Shown here: in pieces, positions 14,765 through 28,234 of the stretch | How the letters are laid out: each line of letters starts with the position of its first letter | Position numbering within the stretch: the stretch's first letter is position 1 | NCBI RefSeq assembly: GCF_003334255.1 | Contig: NZ_QOWU01000015.1 | Length of the DNA: 64,000 nucleotides | Strand: one strand, 5' to 3' | Source: Escherichia coli | Lineage (GTDB): Bacteria > Pseudomonadota > Gammaproteobacteria > Enterobacterales > Enterobacteriaceae | Notes under the pieces: model-generated | Told to the model about the DNA's origin: nothing | What the model saw: the letters and a program-made list of their open reading frames with translations, nothing else | Database searches by the model: none | Translations under genes and position numbers: made by a program

Positions 14765-16018
14765 ATGTTAAAGCGTGAAATGAACATTGCCGATTATGAT
14801 GCCGAACTGTGGCAGGCTATGGAGCAGGAAAAAGTACGTCAGGAAGAGCACATCGAACTGATCGCCTCCGAAAACTACACCAGCCCGCGCGTAATGCAGG
14901 CGCAGGGTTCTCAGCTGACCAACAAATATGCTGAAGGTTATCCGGGCAAACGCTACTACGGCGGTTGCGAGTATGTTGATATCGTTGAACAACTGGCGAT
15001 CGATCGTGCGAAAGAACTGTTCGGCGCTGACTACGCTAACGTCCAGCCGCACTCCGGCTCCCAGGCTAACTTTGCGGTCTACACCGCGCTGCTGGAACCA
15101 GGTGATACCGTTCTGGGTATGAACCTGGCGCATGGCGGTCACCTGACTCACGGTTCTCCGGTTAACTTCTCCGGTAAACTGTACAACATCGTTCCTTACG
15201 GTATCGATGCTACCGGTCATATCGACTACGCCGATCTGGAAAAACAAGCCAAAGAACACAAGCCGAAAATGATTATCGGTGGTTTCTCTGCATATTCCGG
15301 CGTGGTGGACTGGGCGAAAATGCGTGAAATCGCTGACAGCATCGGTGCTTACCTGTTCGTTGATATGGCGCACGTTGCGGGCCTGGTTGCTGCTGGCGTC
15401 TACCCGAACCCGGTTCCTCATGCTCACGTTGTTACTACCACCACTCACAAAACCCTGGCGGGTCCGCGCGGCGGCCTGATCCTGGCGAAAGGTGGTAGCG
15501 AAGAGCTGTACAAAAAACTGAACTCTGCCGTTTTCCCTGGTGGTCAGGGCGGTCCGTTGATGCACGTAATCGCCGGTAAAGCGGTTGCTCTGAAAGAAGC
15601 GATGGAGCCTGAGTTCAAAACTTACCAGCAGCAGGTCGCTAAAAACGCTAAAGCGATGGTAGAAGTGTTCCTCGAGCGCGGCTACAAAGTGGTTTCCGGC
15701 GGCACTGATAACCACCTGTTCCTGGTTGATCTGGTTGATAAAAACCTGACCGGTAAAGAAGCAGACGCCGCTCTGGGCCGTGCTAACATCACCGTCAACA
15801 AAAACAGCGTACCGAACGATCCGAAGAGCCCGTTTGTGACCTCCGGTATTCGTGTAGGTACTCCGGCGATTACCCGTCGCGGCTTTAAAGAAGCCGAAGC
15901 GAAAGAACTGGCTGGCTGGATGTGTGACGTGCTGGACAGCATCAATGATGAAGCCGTTATCGAGCGCATCAAAGGTAAAGTTCTCGACATCTGCGCACGT
16001 TACCCGGTTTACGCATAA
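14765..16018 (+). CDS. glyA: Serine hydroxymethyltransferase (417 aa)
   Basis: [22 protein letters not shown]...; PLP lysine motif [14 protein letters not shown]. Confidence 0.97.
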
Positions 16019-16057
16019 GCGAAACGGTGATTTGCTGTCAATGTGCTCGTTGTTCAT

Positions 16058-16155
16058 GCCGGATGCGGCGTGAACGCCTTATCCGGCCTACAAAACTTTG
16101 CAAATTCAATATATTGCAATCTCCGTGTAGGCCTGATAAGCGTAGCGCATCAGGC
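16058..16155. repeat. RIP/BIME-type element: two inverted REP palindromes flanking an A/T-rich central spacer
   Basis: gccggatgcggcgtgaacgccttatccggcctac ... gtaggcctgataagcgtagcgcatcaggc. Confidence 0.75.
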
Positions 16156-16215
16156 AATTTTTCGTTTATGATCATCAAGGCTTCCTTCGGGAAGCCTTTC
16201 TACGTTATCGCGCCA

Positions 16216-17409
16216 TCAAATCTGTCGTAACTGCGCCTCAACATACAAATAGCCAATTCCCAGCACCTGTTGTGCGCGGCTTAATTGCCCAAAGCCAATT
16301 TGCGTCGCTTTCACGCTCGGTCCTTCGTCGCGGTCGAACGGGTTAAATCCTGTCTGGCGAATAATAGTATTAAGCCAGTTCTCACCAAAGGCACAACTGC
16401 GACCGTACAACCAAATCTGATTAATATTGAGGATGTTGAGGAAGTTATACAGACTCAAACCAATGGCATTGGCAGAGCGATCAACCCAGCTGGTGATCCA
16501 CGGTTCTCCACTTTGCCAGGCAGCGATTAACTGCGCTGTAGTCAGTTTTTCAGGATCAAGTTGAGTACTAACCGGTTGTGATTTTAGCCATACCCGCGCC
16601 TGTTTTTTTAATGCGCTTAACGAGGCGACGGTTTCCAGGCAGCCATAACGTCCACAGTCGCAGACGACGCCATCCGGATTAACGATGGTGTGACCAATCT
16701 GTCCGCTACCATACAAACTGCCGCGATAAATTTGCTCGTTAATCACGAACGACGAGCCAATGCCGTAATCAACGTTGATCACGCAGAAATCCCGTTCCTG
16801 CGAATTATTTTGCCATTTCTCCGCCAGCGCCAGCATCACGCAGTCATTATCGACCATCACCCGAATGCCGAGCTTCTCTTCCAGCAGATATTTCACCTCC
16901 ACCGGCGTTGTCCACGGCGCTTGCGGCATGGTTTGCGACACGCCGGTCACAGGATCAACCTGACCGTGGATTGCCAACGCCAGGTTGATGGTATGGTCCG
17001 GCCACAATTTACGGTGGCGATGCCAGCATTTTTCGATTTCGGACAGCAGCGCCTGCGGCGTCGGTGCATCAATCTGTAAATACTCAAATTCACCTTTCGG
17101 ACTTAAACAAGCATTAGCAACCTGACACTCAATACTGGTGGGCGTCACGTTCAGGCACAGCGTCCAGTCACCTTCCGGCGCAATCAGCCATGTACCGCTA
17201 CTATGCCCGCGCGTATGGCTTTCATCGTCGATATTCACCACCCGTTTTTCGCTTTCCAGTTCCTGCAAAATATTACTGACTGCCGGAATCGAAATTTGCG
17301 CCAGTCGGGCCAGCGTTGATTTATTGGCGCGCTTTTGCCGGTACAGCAGTTCCAGAATCACGCATTTGTTATGGTGGCGGATCTGTTGATTGTTAATGCA
17401 GGCTCTCAT
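16216..17409 (-). CDS. yphH: ROK-family transcriptional regulator (397 aa)
   Basis: N-terminal HTH, ROK glucokinase-like fold with CxCGxxGC zinc motif (CDCGRYGC). Confidence 0.87.
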   Translation of the reverse strand: MRACINNQQIRHHNKCVILELLYRQKRANKSTLARLAQISIPAVSNILQELESEKRVVNIDDESHTRGHSSGTWLIAPEGDWTLCLNVTPTSIECQVANACLSPKGEFEYLQIDAPTPQALLSEIEKCWHRHRKLWPDHTINLALAIHGQVDPVTGVSQTMPQAPWTTPVEVKYLLEEKLGIRVMVDNDCVMLALAEKWQNNSQERDFCVINVDYGIGSSFVINEQIYRGSLYGSGQIGHTIVNPDGVVCDCGRYGCLETVASLSALKKQARVWLKSQPVSTQLDPEKLTTAQLIAAWQSGEPWITSWVDRSANAIGLSLYNFLNILNINQIWLYGRSCAFGENWLNTIIRQTGFNPFDRDEGPSVKATQIGFGQLSRAQQVLGIGYLYVEAQLRQI

Positions 17410-17526
17410 CTTCACTAAACCTTGTTTAGTTAATTGCGTGATTATTCCGCGAAAACATTGCCAGATTGTTCAATACACTGCCACAAATCTTTTAATTCAG
17501 TATGTCTTGTTAATATTGAGGGCACC

Positions 17527-20500
17527 ATGACTCCAGTAAAAGTGTGGCAAGAGCGCGTTGAGATCCCGACCTATGAAACCGGGCCGCAGGATATACATCC
17601 CATGTTCCTGGAAAATCGCGTTTATCAGGGATCGTCCGGCGCGGTTTATCCCTATGGCGTGACCGATACGCTGAGCGAGCAGAAAACCCTGAAATCCTGG
17701 CAGGCGGTGTGGCTGGAAAACGACTACATCAAAGTGATGATCCTGCCGGAACTGGGCGGTCGTGTGCATCGCGCATGGGATAAAGTGAAACAACGCGATT
17801 TTGTTTATCACAATGAAGTCATTAAACCTGCGCTGGTGGGGCTGCTGGGACCGTGGATCTCCGGTGGGATTGAGTTTAACTGGCCGCAACACCATCGCCC
17901 GACCACCTTTATGCCCGTTGATTTCACCCTCGAAGCCCATGAAGACGGCGCACAGACGGTGTGGGTCGGCGAAACGGAGCCGATGCATGGTTTACAGGTG
18001 ATGACAGGTTTCACCCTGCGCCCTGACCGGGCGGCGCTGGAAATCGCCAGCCGCGTCTATAACGGCAACGCCACGCCGCGTCATTTCTTGTGGTGGGCCA
18101 ACCCGGCAGTGAAAGGGGGGGAAGGGCATCAGAGCGTTTTCCCGCCGGATGTAACGGCGGTGTTTGATCACGGCAAACGGGCCGTCTCCGCTTTCCCCAT
18201 CGCCACCGGCACTTACTACAAAGTGGACTACTCCGCTGGAGTGGACATTTCTCGCTATAAAAATGTGCCCGTTCCAACCTCATATATGGCTGAAAAATCA
18301 CAGTACGATTTTGTTGGCGCGTGGTGTCACGATGAAGATGGCGGTTTGCTGCACGTTGCCAACCACCATATTGCGCCAGGTAAAAAACAGTGGAGTTGGG
18401 GACACAGTGAATTTGGCCAGGCGTGGGACAAGAGCCTGACCGACAATAACGGCCCGTATATCGAACTGATGACCGGTATTTTTGCCGATAACCAGCCTGA
18501 TTTTACCTGGCTTGATGCTTACGAAGAGAAGCGTTTCGAGCAGTATTTCCTGCCTTATCATTCTCTGGGCATGGTGCAAAATGCCTCCCGCGATGCGGTG
18601 ATAAAACTCCAGCGTAGTGAGCGGGGGATTGAGTGGGGGCTGTATGCCATCTCTCCGTTGAACGGATACCGCCTGGCGATCCGCGAAATCGGCAAATGCA
18701 ACGCGTTACTTGATGATGCCGTGGCCTTGACACCAGCGACCGCCATCCAGGGCGTGTTGCACGGTATCAATCCTGAAAGGCTGACCATTGAGCTCTCCGA
18801 TGCCGACGGCAATATTGTACTGAGTTATCAGGAACATCAGCCGCAAGAGTTGCCGTTGCCGGACGTCGCCAAAGCGCCACTGGCAGCACAAGACATTACC
18901 AGTACAGATGAAGCCTGGTTTATCGGTCAGCATCTGGAGCAATATCATCACGCCAGCCGTTCACCGTTCGATTACTACCTGCGCGGTGTGGCGCTGGATC
19001 CGCTGGATTACCGCTGTAACCTGGCGCTGGCGATGCTGGAATATAACCGCGCAGATTTCCCACAAGCGGTGGCGTATGCCACTCAGGCGCTGAAACGCGC
19101 ACATGCGCTGAACAAAAATCCGCAGTGCGGACAGGCGAGTTTGATTCGCGCCAGTGCTTACGAACGTCAGGGACAATATCAACAAGCCGAAGAGGATTTC
19201 TGGCGTGCGGTCTGGAGCGGCAACAGCAAAGCAGGCGGCTATTATGGTCTGGCACGACTGGCGGCGCGTAATGGAAACTTCGACGCGGGTCTGGATTTTT
19301 GCCAACACAGTCTTCGCACCTGCCCAACCAATCAGGAAGTGCTTTGCCTGCATAATCTGCTGCTGGTGTTAAGTGGTCGTCAGGACAACGCGCGTTTGCA
19401 GCGCGAGAAACTGCTGCGCGATTATCCGCTGAACGCCACTCTGTGGTGGCTGAACTGGTTCGATGGTCGTAGCGAATCAGCTCTCGCGCAGTGGCGCGGT
19501 CTGTGTCAGGGACGCGACGTTAACGCCCTGATGACCGCCGGGCAACTGATTAACTGGGGAATGCCCACCCTGGCGGCAGAGATGCTGAACGCACTGGACT
19601 GCCAGCGCACGCTGCCGCTTTACCTGCAAGCCAGCTTGCTGCCGAAAGCCGAACGTGGCGAACTGGTCGCAAAAGCCATTGATGTCTTCCCGCAGTTTGT
19701 CCGTTTCCCGAATACGTTGGAAGAAGTGGCGGCGCTGGAGAGTATTGAAGAGTGCTGGTTTGCTCGCCATTTACTGGCCTGCTTCTACTACAACAAACGT
19801 AGCTACAACAAAGCCATTGCCTTATGGCAACGTTGCGTAGAGATGTCGCCGGAGTTTGCCGACGGCTGGCGCGGGTTAGCGATCCATGCGTGGAATAAGC
19901 AACACGATTATGAGCTGGCCGCGCGTTATCTTGATAATGCTTATCAGCTTGCGCCGCAGGATGCACGTCTGCTTTTCGAACGGGATTTGCTTGATAAGTT
20001 AAGTGGAGCCACACCGGAGAAACGACTGGCGCGTCTGGAAAATAATCAGGAAATTGCGCTGAAACGCGACGACATGACCGCAGAACTGCTCAATTTGTGG
20101 CATCTCACGGGTCAGGCAGACAAAGCGGCGGACATTCTCGCCACGCGTAAATTCCACCCGTGGGAAGGCGGGGAAGGGAAGGTCACCAGTCAGTTTATCC
20201 TCAACCAGTTATTACGCGCCTGGCAGCATCTTGATGCCAGACAGCCGCAGCAGGCCAGCGAACTGCTTCATGCCGCGCTGCATTATCCGGAGAATTTAAG
20301 CGAAGGCCGTTTACCGGGGCAAACTGATAACGACATCTGGTTCTGGCAGGCGATATGCGCCAACGCGCAGGGCGATGAAACTGAAGCGATGCGTTGTTTA
20401 CGTCTGGCGGCGACCGGCGATCGCACCATTAACATCCACAGTTATTACAACGATCAGCCGGTTGATTATCTCTTCTGGCAAGGAATGGCGCTGCGACTGC

Positions 20501-20808
20501 TGGGTGAACAGCAAACCGCACAGCAACTGTTTAGTGAAATGAAACAGTGGGCGCAAGAGATGGCGAAAACCAGTATTGAGGCGGATTTCTTTGCTGTTTC
20601 ACAACCTGACCTGTTGTCGCTGTATGGCGATTTACAACAGCAGCATAAAGAAAAATGCCTGATGGTGGCGATGCTGGCGTCCGCGGGACTCGGGGAGGTT
20701 GCGCAATATGAATCTGCTCGCGCTGAATTGACGGCGATTAATCCGGCCTGGCCGAAAGCGGCATTATTCACCACCGTGATGCCTTTTATTTTTAACTACG
20801 TTCACTAA
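17527..20808 (+). CDS. yphG: Large uncharacterised protein (1093 aa) with TPR-like C-terminal half
   Basis: Track ORF 17434..20808 trimmed to the ATG preceded by a GAGGG Shine-Dalgarno; no signal peptide; synteny. Confidence 0.85.
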   Translation: MTPVKVWQERVEIPTYETGPQDIHPMFLENRVYQGSSGAVYPYGVTDTLSEQKTLKSWQAVWLENDYIKVMILPELGGRVHRAWDKVKQRDFVYHNEVIKPALVGLLGPWISGGIEFNWPQHHRPTTFMPVDFTLEAHEDGAQTVWVGETEPMHGLQVMTGFTLRPDRAALEIASRVYNGNATPRHFLWWANPAVKGGEGHQSVFPPDVTAVFDHGKRAVSAFPIATGTYYKVDYSAGVDISRYKNVPVPTSYMAEKSQYDFVGAWCHDEDGGLLHVANHHIAPGKKQWSWGHSEFGQAWDKSLTDNNGPYIELMTGIFADNQPDFTWLDAYEEKRFEQYFLPYHSLGMVQNASRDAVIKLQRSERGIEWGLYAISPLNGYRLAIREIGKCNALLDDAVALTPATAIQGVLHGINPERLTIELSDADGNIVLSYQEHQPQELPLPDVAKAPLAAQDITSTDEAWFIGQHLEQYHHASRSPFDYYLRGVALDPLDYRCNLALAMLEYNRADFPQAVAYATQALKRAHALNKNPQCGQASLIRASAYERQGQYQQAEEDFWRAVWSGNSKAGGYYGLARLAARNGNFDAGLDFCQHSLRTCPTNQEVLCLHNLLLVLSGRQDNARLQREKLLRDYPLNATLWWLNWFDGRSESALAQWRGLCQGRDVNALMTAGQLINWGMPTLAAEMLNALDCQRTLPLYLQASLLPKAERGELVAKAIDVFPQFVRFPNTLEEVAALESIEECWFARHLLACFYYNKRSYNKAIALWQRCVEMSPEFADGWRGLAIHAWNKQHDYELAARYLDNAYQLAPQDARLLFERDLLDKLSGATPEKRLARLENNQEIALKRDDMTAELLNLWHLTGQADKAADILATRKFHPWEGGEGKVTSQFILNQLLRAWQHLDARQPQQASELLHAALHYPENLSEGRLPGQTDNDIWFWQAICANAQGDETEAMRCLRLAATGDRTINIHSYYNDQPVDYLFWQGMALRLLGEQQTAQQLFSEMKQWAQEMAKTSIEADFFAVSQPDLLSLYGDLQQQHKEKCLMVAMLASAGLGEVAQYESARAELTAINPAWPKAALFTTVMPFIFNYVH

Positions 20809-20904
20809 ACCCTATTAACTGTAATATTTGAGCGGCATGCGCTGCCGCTCATCACAAAATAATTAGAATAAGCCGTTGTTAATAAAAACCCTACAGGAGG
20901 CACT

Positions 20905-21888
20905 ATGCCTAAAAAAATGAGAACAACCCGTAATCTATTATTAATGGCTACGCTATTAGGTAGCGCACTATTTGCCAGGGCTGCGGATAAAGAAATGACC
21001 ATTGGTGCAATATACCTTGATACCCAGGGATATTACGCTGGAGTGCGTCAGGGCGTTCAGGATGCGGCAAAAGATTCTTCAGTACAGGTACAGTTAATTG
21101 AAACTAACGCCCAGGGTGATATTTCGAAAGAAAGTACCTTTGTTGATACCCTCGTGGCGCGTAATGTCGATGCCATTATTTTATCGGCAGTGTCTGAAAA
21201 TGGCAGTAGCCGTACCGTTCGTCGCGCCAGTGAAGCGGGTATTCCGGTGATTTGCTACAACACCTGTATTAATCAAAAGGGTGTCGATAAATATGTCTCG
21301 GCGTATCTGGTCGGCGATCCACTGGAATTTGGTAAAAAACTGGGTAACGCTGCCGCCGATTATTTTATTGCCAATAAAATTGACCAGCCGAAAATTGCCG
21401 TCATCAATTGCGAAGCCTTTGAAGTTTGTGTGCAGCGACGTAAAGGATTTGAAGAAGTATTAAAATCCCGCGTTCCCGGCGCGCAAATTGTCGCTAATCA
21501 GGAAGGGACTGTTTTAGATAAAGCGATTTCCGTTGGTGAAAAACTGATTATCTCCACGCCGGATCTCAACGCCATTATGGGGGAGTCGGGCGGTGCGACA
21601 CTCGGCGCGGTAAAAGCGGTACGTAATCAAAATCAGGCCGGAAAAATTGCTGTTTTCGGTTCGGATATGACAACCGAAATTGCTCAGGAGCTGGAAAACA
21701 ATCAGGTGCTGAAAGCGGTAGTGGATATTTCCGGTAAGAAAATGGGCAATGCTGTTTTCGCGCAAACATTGAAGGTTATCAATAAACAAGCCGACGGTGA
21801 AAAAGTGATTCAGGTGCCAATCGATCTCTATACCAAAACGGAAGATGGTAAACAGTGGCTGGCAACGCACGTTGATGGTCTGCCCTAA
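20905..21888 (+). CDS. yphF: ABC transporter periplasmic sugar-binding protein
   Basis: Signal peptide, periplasmic-binding-protein type I fold; AGGAGG RBS. Confidence 0.9.
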   Translation: MPKKMRTTRNLLLMATLLGSALFARAADKEMTIGAIYLDTQGYYAGVRQGVQDAAKDSSVQVQLIETNAQGDISKESTFVDTLVARNVDAIILSAVSENGSSRTVRRASEAGIPVICYNTCINQKGVDKYVSAYLVGDPLEFGKKLGNAAADYFIANKIDQPKIAVINCEAFEVCVQRRKGFEEVLKSRVPGAQIVANQEGTVLDKAISVGEKLIISTPDLNAIMGESGGATLGAVKAVRNQNQAGKIAVFGSDMTTEIAQELENNQVLKAVVDISGKKMGNAVFAQTLKVINKQADGEKVIQVPIDLYTKTEDGKQWLATHVDGLP

Positions 21889-21910
21889 TCGCTGATTCGC
21901 AGAGGTCCCT

Positions 21911-23422
21911 ATGTTCACGGCAACAGAGGCAGTCCCGGTAGCAAAAGTGGTGGCAGGAAATAAGCGTTACCCCGGCGTCGTTGCGCTGGATAACGTTAAC
22001 TTCACGCTCAATAAAGGCGAAGTTCGTGCGCTGTTAGGTAAAAACGGCGCGGGCAAATCGACTCTCATTCGAATGCTTACCGGCAGCGAACGCCCGGATA
22101 GCGGTGATATCTGGATTGGCGAGACGCGACTGGAAGGTGACGAAGCTACGTTGACTCGCCGTGCCGCTGAACTGGGGGTTCGTGCGGTTTATCAGGAATT
22201 AAGTCTGGTGGAAGGGCTGACGGTGGCGGAAAACCTCTGCCTCGGTCAGTGGCCCCGCCGCAACGGCATGATTGATTACCTGCAAATGGCGCAGGATGCC
22301 CAACGTTGCTTACAGGCGCTGGGCGTTGACGTTAGTCCTGAACAACTTGTTTCAACGCTAAGCCCGGCGCAAAAGCAGCTGGTGGAAATTGCGCGGGTGA
22401 TGAAGGGCGAGCCGCGCGTGGTCATTCTTGATGAACCTACCAGTTCGCTTGCGAGTGCGGAAGTTGAACTGGTGATCAGCGCGGTGAAAAAGATGTCGGC
22501 ACTGGGCGTGGCGGTGATTTATGTCAGCCACCGGATGGAAGAAATTCGCCGCATTGCCTCCTGTGCCACCGTTATGCGCGATGGTCAGGTGGCGGGCGAT
22601 GTGATGCTCGAAAACACCTCCACGCATCATATTGTGTCGCTAATGCTAGGGCGTGATCACGTTGATATTGCGCCGGTAGCCCCTCAGGAAATTGTGGATC
22701 AGGCCGTACTGGAAGTCCGTGCGTTACGCCATAAGCCCAAGCTGGAGGATATCAGCTTTACGCTACGTCGTGGCGAAGTGCTTGGCATTGCTGGCCTGCT
22801 GGGGGCAGGGCGCAGTGAATTGCTGAAGGCGATTGTTGGGCTGGAGACGTATGAACAGGGCGAAATTGTTATCAACGGCGAGAAAATCATGCGCCCCGAT
22901 TACGGCGACATGCTGAAACGCGGCATTGGCTATACGCCAGAAAACCGCAAAGAAGCGGGGATCATTCCCTGGCTGGGCGTTGACGAAAATACAGTGCTGA
23001 CCAATCGGCAAAAAATCAGCACCAACGGTGTGCTGCAATGGTCCACCATCCGCCGCCTGACCGAAGAGGTGATGCAGCGGATGACGGTCAAGGCTGCCAG
23101 TAGCGAAACACCCATCGGCACGCTTTCTGGTGGCAATCAGCAAAAAGTGGTGATCGGTCGTTGGGTCTATGCCGCCAGCCAGATTTTGTTGCTCGACGAG
23201 CCAACGCGCGGCGTCGATATCGAAGCCAAACAGCAGATTTACCGTATTGTCCGTGAGCTGGCTGCCGAAGGAAAAAGCGTGGTGTTTATCTCCAGTGAAG
23301 TGGAGGAGTTGCCGCTGGTGTGCGACCGCATCCTGTTGTTACAGCACGGTACGTTCTCGCAGGAGTTTCACTCGCCGGTCAATGTGGATGAGCTGATGTC
23401 CGCCATTCTGTCTGTGCACTGA
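21911..23422 (+). CDS. yphE: ABC transporter ATP-binding protein with duplicated ABC domains (sugar type)
   Basis: Walker A GKNGAGKST, signature LSGGNQQK, second ABC domain. Confidence 0.92.
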   Translation: MFTATEAVPVAKVVAGNKRYPGVVALDNVNFTLNKGEVRALLGKNGAGKSTLIRMLTGSERPDSGDIWIGETRLEGDEATLTRRAAELGVRAVYQELSLVEGLTVAENLCLGQWPRRNGMIDYLQMAQDAQRCLQALGVDVSPEQLVSTLSPAQKQLVEIARVMKGEPRVVILDEPTSSLASAEVELVISAVKKMSALGVAVIYVSHRMEEIRRIASCATVMRDGQVAGDVMLENTSTHHIVSLMLGRDHVDIAPVAPQEIVDQAVLEVRALRHKPKLEDISFTLRRGEVLGIAGLLGAGRSELLKAIVGLETYEQGEIVINGEKIMRPDYGDMLKRGIGYTPENRKEAGIIPWLGVDENTVLTNRQKISTNGVLQWSTIRRLTEEVMQRMTVKAASSETPIGTLSGGNQQKVVIGRWVYAASQILLLDEPTRGVDIEAKQQIYRIVRELAAEGKSVVFISSEVEELPLVCDRILLLQHGTFSQEFHSPVNVDELMSAILSVH

Positions 23423-23446
23423 TGAATTTTACCGAGGAACCTGAAG

Positions 23447-24445
23447 ATGTCTGCTTCGTCATTATCATTGCCGCAGGGCAAGAGCGTCTCGCTCAAACAA
23501 TTTGTCAGTCGCCATATTAATGAGATCGGTTTGCTGGTGGTAATCGCCATTCTTTATCTGGTCTTCTCCCTGAACGCGCCTGGCTTTATCTCATTGAATA
23601 ACCAGATGAACGTGCTGCGCGATGCCGCCACCATTGGGATTGCCGCCTGGGCGATGACGCTGATTATTATCTCCGGTGAAATTGATGTCAGCGTTGGGCC
23701 GATGGTGGCTTTTGTCTCGGTGTGCCTGGCATTTTTGCTGCAATTTGAAGTTCCGTTGGCGATTGCTTGTCTGCTGGTGTTGCTGTTAGGCGCGCTGATG
23801 GGAACGCTCGCCGGGGTGCTGCGCGGCGTGTTTAACGTACCAAGTTTCGTTGCCACACTGGGGCTGTGGAGCGCCCTGCGCGGAATGGGGCTGTTTATGA
23901 CCAACGCACTGCCAGTGCCGATTGACGAAAACGAGGTGCTGGACTGGCTGGGCGGACAATTTCTCGGTGTGCCAGTATCCGCGCTGATCATGATGGTGTT
24001 GTTTGCGCTGTTTGTGTTCATTAGCCGAAAAACCGCCTTCGGGCGCTCGGTTTTTGCCGTTGGCGGTAATGCCACGGCGGCGCAGTTGTGCGGCATCAAC
24101 GTTCGTCGGGTACGCATTCTTATCTTTACCCTTTCGGGATTATTAGCGGCGGTGACCGGCATTTTGTTGGCGGCGCGCCTCGGTTCCGGTAACGCAGGTG
24201 CCGCAAACGGTCTGGAGTTTGACGTCATCGCCGCGGTCGTGGTCGGCGGTACGGCACTTTCCGGCGGTCGCGGTTCCCTGTTCGGTACATTGCTTGGTGT
24301 GCTGGTGATTACGCTAATCGGTAACGGTCTGGTGCTGCTCGGTATTAACTCCTTTTTCCAGCAGGTGGTACGCGGCGTCATCATCGTGGTGGCGGTGCTG
24401 GCGAATATCTTGCTGACCCAGCGAAGCAGTAAAGCGAAACGCTAA
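23447..24445 (+). CDS. yphD: ABC transporter permease
   Basis: Polytopic hydrophobic protein, ribose/xylose-permease-like. Confidence 0.92.
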   Translation: MSASSLSLPQGKSVSLKQFVSRHINEIGLLVVIAILYLVFSLNAPGFISLNNQMNVLRDAATIGIAAWAMTLIIISGEIDVSVGPMVAFVSVCLAFLLQFEVPLAIACLLVLLLGALMGTLAGVLRGVFNVPSFVATLGLWSALRGMGLFMTNALPVPIDENEVLDWLGGQFLGVPVSALIMMVLFALFVFISRKTAFGRSVFAVGGNATAAQLCGINVRRVRILIFTLSGLLAAVTGILLAARLGSGNAGAANGLEFDVIAAVVVGGTALSGGRGSLFGTLLGVLVITLIGNGLVLLGINSFFQQVVRGVIIVVAVLANILLTQRSSKAKR

Positions 24446-24510
24446 ACCTTAACGCCCCTGGCGCGGGTGCGGCAGGGATGAAAATTAATCGTATTGTTAA
24501 TGAGGGATTT

Positions 24511-25572
24511 ATGAAAACGATGCTGGCAGCTTATTTACCAGGAAATTCGACCGTCGATCTGCGGGAAGTTGCGGTGCCGACGCCGGGGATTAACCAGGTA
24601 CTGATCAAAATGAAATCCTCCGGGATTTGCGGAAGCGATGTCCACTATATCTATCATCAACACCGTGCCACAGCGGCGGCACCCGATAAACCGTTATACC
24701 AGGGCTTTATCAACGGTCATGAACCGTGCGGGCAGATTGTGGCGATGGGGCAAGGCTGCCGCCATTTTAAAGAGGGCGACCGCGTGCTGGTGTATCACAT
24801 TTCTGGCTGTGGTTTTTGCCCGAACTGCCGCCGCGGCTTTCCTATCTCTTGTACTGGCAAAGGAAAAGCGGCTTACGGCTGGCAGCGTGACGGCGGTCAT
24901 GCCGAATATCTGCTGGCGGAAGAAAAAGATCTGATCCTCCTGCCGGATGCGCTGAGCTACGAAGATGGTGCGTTTATCAGTTGCGGCGTTGGCACGGCCT
25001 ATGAAGGGATTTTGCGCGGCGAAGTTTCCGGCAGCGATAACGTGCTGGTGGTCGGTCTGGGGCCGGTCGGCATGATGGCGATGATGCTGGCGAAAGGTCG
25101 CGGTGCAAAACGGATCATCGGCGTTGATATGCTGCCGGAACGTCTGGCGATGGCAAAACAGTTAGGGGTGATGGATCACGGCTATTTAGCGACCACCGAA
25201 GGTCTGCCGCAGATAATTGCTGAACTTACCCACGGTGGCGCGGATGTTGCGCTCGATTGTTCCGGTAATGCCGCAGGTCGCTTGCTGGCACTGCAATCCA
25301 CTGCTGACTGGGGGCGGGTGGTTTACATTGGTGAAACCGGAAAAGTGGAATTCGAGGTCAGCGCCGATCTGATGCACCATCAACGGCGGATTATTGGCTC
25401 CTGGGTGACCAGTCTGTTCCATATGGAAAAATGCGCCCACGATTTAACGGACTGGAAACTGTGGCCGCGTAACGCCATTACCCATCGCTTCTCGCTGGAA
25501 CAGGCAGGTGATGCCTATGCGCTGATGGCGAGCGGCAAATGCGGGAAAGTTGTGATTAACTTCCCGGATTAA
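24511..25572 (+). CDS. yphC: Zn-dependent alcohol/polyol dehydrogenase (MDR family)
   Basis: GHEPCG zinc motif, GLGPVG Rossmann motif; start trimmed from 24478 to the ATG with a GAGGGA RBS. Confidence 0.87.
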   Translation: MKTMLAAYLPGNSTVDLREVAVPTPGINQVLIKMKSSGICGSDVHYIYHQHRATAAAPDKPLYQGFINGHEPCGQIVAMGQGCRHFKEGDRVLVYHISGCGFCPNCRRGFPISCTGKGKAAYGWQRDGGHAEYLLAEEKDLILLPDALSYEDGAFISCGVGTAYEGILRGEVSGSDNVLVVGLGPVGMMAMMLAKGRGAKRIIGVDMLPERLAMAKQLGVMDHGYLATTEGLPQIIAELTHGGADVALDCSGNAAGRLLALQSTADWGRVVYIGETGKVEFEVSADLMHHQRRIIGSWVTSLFHMEKCAHDLTDWKLWPRNAITHRFSLEQAGDAYALMASGKCGKVVINFPD

Positions 25573-25583
25573 GGAGTTAGCGG

Positions 25584-26456
25584 ATGACCATCTATACCTT
25601 ATCCCACGGGTCGCTAAAGCTGGACGTTTCTGACCAGGGCAGCGTAATCGAAGGCTTCTGGCGCGATACGACGCCGCTCTTACGTCCTGGTAAAAAAAGC
25701 GGTGTGGCAACCGATGCCTCCTGTTTTCCGCTGGTGCCGTTTGCAAACCGGGTGAGCGGCAACCATTTTGTCTGGCAGGGGCGTGAGTATCAATTGCAAC
25801 CGAATGTTGAATGGGATGCGCACTATCTGCACGGCGACGGCTGGCTGGGGCAGTGGCAATGTGTCTCGCGCAATGATGATAGCTTGTGTCTGGTGTATGA
25901 ACATCGCAGCGGTGTTTATCACTATCGGGTAAGTCAGGCGTTTCATTTAACGGCGGATACGCTGACGGTGACGCTCTCTGTCACCAATCAAGGAGCAGAG
26001 ACGCTGCCATTTGGTACCGGCTGGCATCCTTATTTTCCGTTGTCACCACAAACGCGGATTCAGGCGCAGGCGAGCGGTTACTGGCTGGAACGGGAGCAGT
26101 GGCTGGCGGGTGAGTTTTGCGAGCAGCTACCGCAGGAACTGGATTTTAACCAGCTCGCGCCGTTGCCGCGCCAGTGGGTGAACAATGGTTTTGCCGGATG
26201 GAATGGTCAGGCCCGCATCGAGCAGCCGCAGGAAGGTTATGCCATCATCATGGAAACGACGCCACCTGCACCGTGTTATTTCATCTTTGTTTCCGACCCT
26301 GCGTTTGATAAAGGATATGCGTTTGATTTCTTCTGTCTGGAACCGATGAGCCATGCGCCGGATGATCATCATCGCCCGGAAGGGGGTGATCTCATTGCGC
26401 TAGCACCAGGGGAATCAACAACTTCAGAGATGTCGTTGCGGGTAGAGTGGCTGTAA
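25584..26456 (+). CDS. yphB: Aldose 1-epimerase (mutarotase)-family protein
   Basis: 290-aa ORF; family assignment by synteny and size. Confidence 0.85.
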   Translation: MTIYTLSHGSLKLDVSDQGSVIEGFWRDTTPLLRPGKKSGVATDASCFPLVPFANRVSGNHFVWQGREYQLQPNVEWDAHYLHGDGWLGQWQCVSRNDDSLCLVYEHRSGVYHYRVSQAFHLTADTLTVTLSVTNQGAETLPFGTGWHPYFPLSPQTRIQAQASGYWLEREQWLAGEFCEQLPQELDFNQLAPLPRQWVNNGFAGWNGQARIEQPQEGYAIIMETTPPAPCYFIFVSDPAFDKGYAFDFFCLEPMSHAPDDHHRPEGGDLIALAPGESTTSEMSLRVEWL

Positions 26457-26466
26457 TTTATTAAAT

Positions 26467-26497
26467 GCCGGATAAGGCGTTCACGCCGCATCCGGCA
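26467..26497. repeat. Single REP palindrome
   Basis: gccggataaggcgttcacgccgcatccggc. Confidence 0.6.
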
Positions 26498-26503
26498 TCT
26501 TTC

Positions 26504-26926
26504 CTAACGCCGATCGAGAGAAATTGCCCCCGGCCCGGTAATTGCCAATAGCAAGAACGCGCCAGCGATACTGACATTCTTCCAGAAATTAATCATATTT
26601 GGCCCAACCGCATCGCCGGTCATATCCCAGTAATGGTGACCAATCACCGCCGTACCCAGCGTGTAGAAAATAAACAGCACCGCCAGCGGACGGGTGAAAA
26701 AGCCAAGCACGATTAATATCGCGGCGGGCACTTCCATAACTACCGCAATAATCGCTGCCAGCATCGGCATTGGCGCGCCCAACGAGGCCATATATTGGAC
26801 CGTACCGTCAAAGCCCATCATTTTGGGAAAACCAAAAATAATGAAAATTAAGACCACGGCGATACGGGCAATTAATAACAAAACGGGGCGGGCAGCTCCA
26901 AAATCAAAATAACGTAGTGTGTTCAT
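26504..26926 (-). CDS. yphA: DoxX-family inner membrane protein (140 aa)
   Basis: [29 protein letters not shown]...; four predicted TM helices. Confidence 0.85.
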
Positions 26927-27022
26927 AACCAATCCCTTTGCAAGATAATGTGATTTAAACGTAATACACACTCTTGCACCTCGCCACGCCCCAGGCGTTG
27001 AGATATTCGCTAATTATCCTGG

Positions 27023-28234
<1,212 letters not shown>

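Follow-up and report, generated by a model that had tools for sequence, protein, structure and literature searches.

YphG of Escherichia coli: an orphan DUF5107-TPR protein with a predicted mutarotase-superfamily fold and a galactoside-centered gene neighborhood

The yphG gene and the yph locus

The stretch of DNA analyzed here (the window) comprises 64,000 nucleotides of the Escherichia coli contig NZ_QOWU01000015.1 and contains the yph locus, with genes in the order purL...glyA, yphH (divergent), yphG-F-E-D-C-B, yphA and the hca genes. Our subject is yphG, an intact open reading frame (ORF) on the plus strand that extends from the ATG at 17527 to the TAA at 20806-20808 (1093 codons) and is 100% identical to RefSeq yphG (WP_001544029.1, "DUF5107 domain-containing protein"), with the same DNA sequence in several E. 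coli strains. A copy was found in 5423 of the 5426 complete E. coli genomes, and no foreign-island signature was seen in the base composition around it. The gene has long been annotated with no assigned function and is at present a known orphan rather than a discovery; the Pfam family of its product and the crystal structure of a relative were also public. In the literature searched, no paper assigns a function to YphG, to DUF5107 or to the crystallized relative (5CD6, BDI_1685), and publications on the yph genes consisted of uses as polymerase chain reaction markers, gene lists and statements that YphH is uncharacterized. New here are the assignment of the YphG fold to the mutarotase superfamily, a conserved gene neighborhood centered on galactosides, and the recognition of the ABC transporter block downstream of yphG as an insertion. 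The features of the locus are as follows.

16216..17409, minus strand: yphH, ROK-family (NagC/Mlc-like) regulator (RefSeq)
17414..17430, no strand assigned: perfect 7-bp inverted repeat ACTAAAC-ctt-GTTTAGT beside the yphH start codon, in the yphH-yphG gap (17410-17526)
17518-17522, plus strand: Shine-Dalgarno sequence GAGGG of yphG, 4 nt 5' of the ATG (read from the sequence)
17527..20808, plus strand: yphG coding sequence, 1093 aa, predicted cytoplasmic product (ORF, RefSeq, hydropathy)
20829..20851, plus strand: GC-rich 9-bp hairpin TGAGCGGCA tgcgc TGCCGCTCA in the 97-nt yphG-yphF gap
20905..24445, plus strand: yphF, yphE and yphD, the substrate-binding protein, ATPase and permease of a monosaccharide-type ABC importer (RefSeq)
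24478..25572, plus strand: yphC, Zn-dependent polyol-type dehydrogenase that travels with the ABC block (RefSeq)
25584..26456, plus strand: yphB, aldose-1-epimerase family protein (PDB 3NRE), part of the ancestral module with YphG

An earlier note on this DNA, made from the sequence, had described yphG as the first and largest gene of a putative operon, with a good Shine-Dalgarno sequence and no N-terminal signal sequence in its product, and all of this holds. The Shine-Dalgarno sequence is conserved in the form TTGAGGG in the loci from Escherichia, Enterobacter and Budvicia. Residues 1-25 of YphG are hydrophilic (mean Kyte-Doolittle value -0.81) and the highest 19-residue hydropathy in the whole protein is 1.22, so neither a signal peptide nor a membrane helix is expected; signal peptides were likewise absent from all 83 closest homologs (at least 39% identity). 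A longer version of the protein, starting at an in-frame TTG at 17434 (31 additional residues, not signal-like), was rejected because both the homologs and RefSeq start at 17527.

The six genes yphG-B lie on the same strand, separated by gaps of 97, 22, 24, 32 and 11 nt, of which the first, between yphG and yphF, contains the hairpin and the other four are only 11-32 nt long. They may be transcribed together and are probably regulated by YphH. This protein, described as the third, uncharacterized ROK repressor of E. coli (PMC4288165), matched the NCBIfam models for NagC and Mlc at scores under the curated cut-offs. Most of the 17 loci examined in Enterobacterales, Aeromonas and Photobacterium have a ROK gene divergent from that of YphG, and YphH is the probable repressor of the module. 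Fourteen ROK-YphG intergenic regions of Enterobacterales and Aeromonas share the conserved block CACTAAAC..GTT.A.T..ATTGCGTGA and the boxes ACACTGCC and TTCAGTATG/TTCACTGT, and the inverted repeat is a candidate YphH operator in a shared divergent control region. A promoter scan of the region produced sites no more commonly than in shuffled sequence, and none within the yphH-yphG gap. The yphG-yphF gap has a minimum free energy of -24.5 kcal/mol (z -2.6); its hairpin has no U-tract after the stem and was not among the sites of a terminator scan that requires a T-run. It may serve as an mRNA processing or stability element, or as a partial attenuator between yphG and the ABC genes. No Rfam RNA family was detected in the interval 15500-27500.

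For the importer, the best NCBIfam matches of YphF, YphE and YphD were to allose, galactose, ribose, arabinose and xylose systems, none of which reached the cut-off. The relatives of YphF in PDB are ribose-, galactofuranose- and galactose-binding proteins, and none of the hits from PDB searches with YphF and YphC was a close relative with a bound ligand from which the sugar could be told.

Fold and conserved residues of YphG

We aligned 76 full-length YphG relatives with 27-58% identity, including relatives with signal peptides, and used the alignment both for structure prediction with AlphaFold2 and for the analysis of conservation. The resulting model (pLDDT 95.3, pTM 0.93) consists of a large beta domain, a small beta-sandwich and a helical TPR solenoid, which correspond to the following segments of the gene.

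17539..18561, plus strand: aldose-1-epimerase-fold (DUF5107) domain, residues 5-345, carrying E116, H122, H123, R124, N192, H215, K287, E313, N322, Q323 and D325
18595..18831, plus strand: small second beta-sandwich, residues 357-435 (AlphaFold strands)
18904..20802, plus strand: TPR solenoid of ~36 helices, residues 460-1092, ~630 in all (AlphaFold helices)

The Pfam family DUF5107 (PF17128) matched residues 39-324 with an E-value of 3.1e-55, and TPR_16 matched residues 499-560 and 754-813. The segment FYYNKRSYNKAIALWQRCVEMSPEF (residues 752-776), which the earlier note had quoted as an example of TPR-like repeats in the C-terminal half, falls within the second of these matches and resembles consensus TPR proteins, in agreement with that description. 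The small second beta-sandwich is poorly conserved in sequence.

In the predicted structure the N-terminal domain has the beta-sandwich fold of the mutarotases. Among solved structures the orphan 5CD6 comes closest, followed by mutarotases, one of which is YphB, encoded in the same operon. Relatives in AFDB superimposed with TM scores of 0.90-0.95 at 31-33% identity, and a Foldseek search of AFDB50 returned just unnamed DUF5107 or TPR proteins. We place YphG by its fold in the mutarotase superfamily, as a structural relative of YphB, its operon partner. A sequence search of PDB with the profile of the N-domain returned 5cd6 alone, and none of the PADLOC anti-phage models matched YphG at E ≤ 0.01. 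The family is large, with 5698 clusters at 50% identity (E < 1e-3); most of the 150 best cluster representatives are ~1100 aa long and collinear with YphG end to end, combining DUF5107 with a C-terminal TPR part.

Four residues, N65, N179, E313 and R782, are invariant in the 76 sequences. A further set in the N-terminal part is conserved to at least 90% (E64, D85, K86, E116, H122, H123, R124, W190, N192, H215, N246, K287, D306, N322, Q323, D325, E333), as are Q472, D491, E818, E880 and the loop F876-PWEGGEG in the helical part, where the retained polar positions of the solenoid are Q472, D491, R782, E818 and this loop. Conservation is highest in the domain with the sugar-enzyme fold, not in the TPR part, and E116, H123, W190, N192, H215, K287 and E313 are retained even in the remote 5cd6. 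The density of conserved polar residues in this domain suggests an active site rather than a docking surface, and E313, H123, H215, K287 and E116 are candidate catalytic residues.

We also compared these positions with the aldose 1-epimerases, of which 37 share invariant R56, H83, H148 and E253 (YphB numbering). To place these catalytic residues, the secondary-structure strings of the AlphaFold models of YphG and YphB were aligned with four parameter sets. H148 of YphB aligned at N192 or A191 of YphG in three of the four, and H83 at P125 or V131; R56 had no counterpart in three sets and fell on an unconserved Glu in the fourth. E253 was placed at K287 or at M315, two residues from E313, depending on the parameters. 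Over the N-terminal half the mapping was stable; at the catalytic Glu it was ambiguous.

Gene neighborhoods and secreted relatives

To examine the genomic context, one genome per species was scanned, which gave at least 600 matched stretches, 596 of 600 encoding YphG relatives. Eighty loci were fetched and, together with 3 from other searches, provided 83 loci in which ORFs were called and neighbors clustered, from Enterobacterales, Aeromonas, Photobacterium, Bacteroidota, Clostridia, Bacilli and Bifidobacterium. The sugar-gene neighborhood recurs in several phyla, each of its categories in 52-58 of the 83 loci. A XylE-like MFS sugar porter is encoded in 47, adjacent to and co-directional with the YphG gene in 33 (median gap 27 nt). 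Its place is taken by a monosaccharide-type ABC system in Clostridia and by a protein above the MelB cut-off (564 vs 456 bits) in Photobacterium; members of the MelB-type cluster also occur in one Citrobacter and one Clostridium locus. Regulators of the AraC (46/83) and ROK (16/83) families are common, with a regulator gene directly adjacent to the YphG gene in 39 loci and at most three genes away in 58.

Galactosidases are a second recurrent element. A glycoside hydrolase (GH) of family GH2, related to the Bacteroides exo-beta-1,4-galactosidase BT4151 (1164 bits at a cut-off of 1500), is present in 32 loci, and GH35 beta-galactosidase, GH97 alpha-galactosidase and a GH36-like alpha-galactosidase or beta-L-arabinopyranosidase also recur. 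Epimerases are represented by GalM in 11 loci and by a YphB-type protein in 15, of which 14 are from Enterobacterales, Aeromonas and Photobacterium. In Bacteroidota the GH2 neighbor carries a signal peptide, which its Firmicutes counterpart lacks, and this pattern, together with the lack of a signal peptide in the YphG homologs, suggests that YphG acts after the galactosidases and after transport.

Several Enterobacterales loci contain the series ROK-YphG-MFS-YphB followed by unrelated genes (hcaT, csiE, dusA, pspG), with no dedicated kinase or aldolase after YphB. This four-gene series is the ancestral form of the module in Enterobacterales and Aeromonas. Only the loci of E. coli, E. albertii, some Enterobacter strains and Budvicia diplopodorum carry the yphF-E-D-C block (20905-25572) between yphG and yphB, and Enterobacter sp. 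and B. diplopodorum have both the ABC block and the MFS porter (comparison with loci L005-L019). The block is a lineage-specific insertion into an older module, and the MFS porter has been lost in E. coli and E. albertii. Since the block was inserted in these lineages only, the arrangement in which YphG heads an ABC operon is derived and lineage-specific. A Firmicutes locus (L067) with an ABC and dehydrogenase block was considered as independent support for an association of YphG with YphC and set aside, as HipA-like and GntR genes intervene, suggesting a separate operon.

A fixed order of MFS porter, SGNH/GDSL-like esterase (240 aa, with a signal peptide), GH2 and YphG was observed in marine Flavobacteriia (L022, L039, L048, L057, L071 and L080). 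A sulfatase gene usually comes first, and further sulfatases and a second GH2 often follow the YphG gene. Judging from this gene content, the source in these loci may be a galactoside or galactan that bears sulfate and/or acyl groups.

Full-length relatives with at most 33% identity to YphG often have clear signal peptides, and we read the contigs of six of these. Two of the six are encoded in polysaccharide utilization loci with SusC/SusD and GH16, one of which also contains sulfatases and beta-helix proteins. The positions of these two are as follows.

L084:10001-13303: secreted DUF5107-TPR relative among SusC/SusD and GH16 genes
L087:6547-9876: secreted DUF5107-TPR relative in a context of the same kind

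A third has GH36, a mutarotase, AraC and an MFS porter as neighbors; a fourth (P0109) is followed directly by a CBM9-like gene; a fifth adjoins genes for a xylose-isomerase-like TIM-barrel protein and a Gfo/Idh/MocA oxidoreductase; and the last is on a 5-kb contig with no informative neighbors. Among further relatives, extra C-terminal domains were identified in P0139 (CBM9-like) and P0082 (Exo_endo_phos). The family recurs in the sugar-utilization loci of gut and marine polysaccharide degraders. The presence of the same invariant residues in members from both compartments argues for an intrinsic, cofactor-free carbohydrate activity, not for a role that depends on cytoplasmic regulators. The contexts of the secreted relatives are typical of a carbohydrate-active enzyme and hard to square with a function tied to cytoplasmic partners.

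Possible functions of YphG

We give about an even chance to the explanation that YphG is a cofactor-independent cytoplasmic carbohydrate-active enzyme that acts on an imported galacto-configured sugar or small galactoside. Its chemistry and substrate are inferred, as are the location of the pocket and the contribution of the TPR part to the site. The module would consist of a regulator, a monosaccharide-type transporter, YphG as the catalytic component and a mutarotase. The epimerase-fold domain would hold the sugar in a pocket lined by E116, H122-H123-R124, N192, H215, K287, E313 and N322-Q323-D325, and the TPR solenoid would pack onto this domain and complete the site with R782, E818 and the loop F876-PWEGGEG. 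An acid/base reaction would then proceed, with no cofactor, at or beside the anomeric carbon of the galacto-configured substrate, most likely the hydrolysis of a small galactoside or, alternatively, a ring-opening isomerization or epimerization. Hydrolysis fits the logic of the operon and the secreted relatives best; isomerization or epimerization fits the monosaccharide-type transporters better. Phosphorolysis was ranked low, since the secreted members would offer no rationale for it. The common sugar that is freed would be anomerized by YphB (GalM in other phyla) and enter central pathways with no further dedicated genes. In E. coli, uptake would be mediated by the YphFED system in place of the ancestral MFS porter, with YphH as the likely repressor.

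Such a module may be compared with the lac (LacI-LacZ-LacY, with GalM acting on the product) and mel (MelR-MelA-MelB) operons, which combine a permease, a cytoplasmic glycosidase and a regulator. Like these, the YphG module has one regulator, one transporter, a large cytoplasmic protein, a mutarotase and no dedicated downstream genes, and the MelB equivalog that replaces the MFS porter in Photobacterium adds to the likeness with mel. Unlike LacZ and MelA, YphG has no GH1, GH2, GH4, GH36 or GH42 domain, its activity is putative, and the usual transporters of its loci are typical for monosaccharides, not disaccharides. The architecture also has parallels. In the families GH15, GH65, GH94 and PL8 (a polysaccharide lyase, PL, family), a mutarotase-like super-sandwich is paired with an alpha-helical repeat domain, and there are cytoplasmic as well as secreted forms; YphG and its relatives likewise join a beta-sandwich of the same superfamily to helical repeats and occur in both compartments. 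As for 5CD6 (BDI_1685 of Parabacteroides distasonis), a structural-genomics "TPR-domain containing protein", it belongs to the DUF5107 family like YphG. It differs in having only 580 aa, about half the length, and a much shorter TPR part, as well as in lacking H122, R124 and the DNQPD motif; as no paper on it turned up in the literature searched, it offers no functional transfer.

Several observations count against an enzymatic role. The aldose-1-epimerase fold is not known to support glycosidase, lyase or isomerase chemistry beyond mutarotation. The sugar-porter and monosaccharide-type ABC families carry mainly monosaccharides, which makes a glycoside a less than obvious cargo, and for a cargo of plain galactose there is no evident gap in the pathway that an enzyme would fill. 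The usual role of TPR solenoids is to bind other proteins. The Pfam profile Aldose_epim (PF01263) did not match YphG even at E ≤ 10, and hhalign of the N-domain against the GalM and YphB alignments of the 37-sequence epimerase set, in local and global mode, gave probabilities below 1% and no residue mapping. In E. coli, the evidence that links the ABC/YphC block to YphG is their synteny, and no data on yphG expression or phenotype were found in the literature searched. The earlier note had suggested a glycoside-processing enzyme or a regulatory scaffold, and this is borne out in part. No GH or PL catalytic domain was detected in YphG, either by sequence or by fold.

The strongest alternative, which we nevertheless consider rather unlikely, is a non-catalytic sugar sensor or adaptor, in which the epimerase-fold domain would bind a sugar and the TPR part would relay this state to the AraC or ROK regulator or to the transporter on its cytoplasmic side. 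In favor of this, protein binding is the classic role of TPR repeats, a regulator gene is adjacent in 39 of the 83 loci and within three genes in 58, the fold has no known catalysis beyond mutarotation, and the canonical mutarotase residues are not clearly retained. However, the regulator family switches between AraC, ROK and LacI while YphG stays conserved, and AraC and ROK regulators already have ligand-binding domains of their own. Moreover, the secreted relatives beside SusC/SusD, GH16 and sulfatases keep the invariant residues in places where such partners are absent, one relative (P0139) is fused to a CBM9-like domain, and the roughly 20 conserved polar residues exceed the usual need of a simple binding site.

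We regard as improbable a second alternative, according to which YphG is a specialized mutarotase or pyranase that interconverts the anomers of one sugar, or its ring forms, and has a TPR part for stability or oligomerization only. The best characterized structural matches are all mutarotases, and YphG has conserved His residues and the invariant E313 in the C-terminal part of the domain. We compared YphG in this respect with the aldose 1-epimerases GalM of L. lactis (1L7J) and B. subtilis (3MWX/4BZE), YphB of E. coli (3NRE) and the hexose-6-phosphate mutarotases 2CIQ/2HTA. YphG shows no profile-level similarity to them, with no match to Aldose_epim, and their R/H/H/E set was not clearly recovered: N192 or A191 aligns at the position of YphB H148 in three of the four parameter sets, and R56 is unmatched in three and opposite an unconserved Glu in the fourth. 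In addition, YphG also contains the small second beta-sandwich and a TPR solenoid of 630 residues, a dedicated YphB or GalM is already encoded alongside in many loci, and both the size of 1100 residues and the secreted relatives in polysaccharide utilization loci would be hard to justify for a mutarotase. A generic TPR scaffold or chaperone unrelated to sugar, with a coincidental neighborhood and possibly a cryptic passenger in E. coli, would accord with the lack of published phenotype or expression data and with promoter-like sites no commoner than in shuffled sequence, and is very improbable given the sugar genes around it in several phyla, the higher conservation of the sugar-enzyme-fold domain than of the TPR part and the retention of yphG in nearly all E. 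coli genomes.

The enzymatic reading of YphG may be extended to the family. We tentatively propose, as a possibility with less in its favor than the role of YphG itself, that the DUF5107-TPR proteins are a new family of carbohydrate-active enzymes in which the epimerase-fold domain, closed by the TPR solenoid, is catalytic on a galacto-configured glycoside. If so, cytoplasmic members such as YphG would complete the salvage of galactosides or galactans, secreted members would act inside polysaccharide utilization loci, the family would provide the first mutarotase-fold chemistry beyond anomerization, and one of the larger E. coli K-12 genes with no assigned role would gain a function. A catalytic YphG would supply a missing step in the use of galactans or galactosides; a non-catalytic one would be an unusual sugar-sensing TPR adaptor. 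The proposal is testable through its candidate substrate class, catalytic residues, repressor (YphH) and operator, and through candidate comparison systems in Bacteroidota and Clostridia.

Two further gene families were observed next to YphG genes. Cluster c23, with secreted members of ~740 aa, adjoins the MFS porter or YphG in five loci and had no NCBIfam or PDB sequence matches, and is thus another unannotated family of this neighborhood. A 137-aa protein with weak similarity to ureidoglycolate lyase is encoded directly 3' of the YphG homolog in three loci from gut Clostridia of the Lachnospiraceae type. The positions are as follows.

L027:6335-8563, L063:7783-9969, L070:13398-15554, L072:6320-8575 and L018:490-3414: members of cluster c23
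L035:4013-4426, L065:5142-5558 and L069:5233-5646: 137-aa ureidoglycolate lyase-like protein

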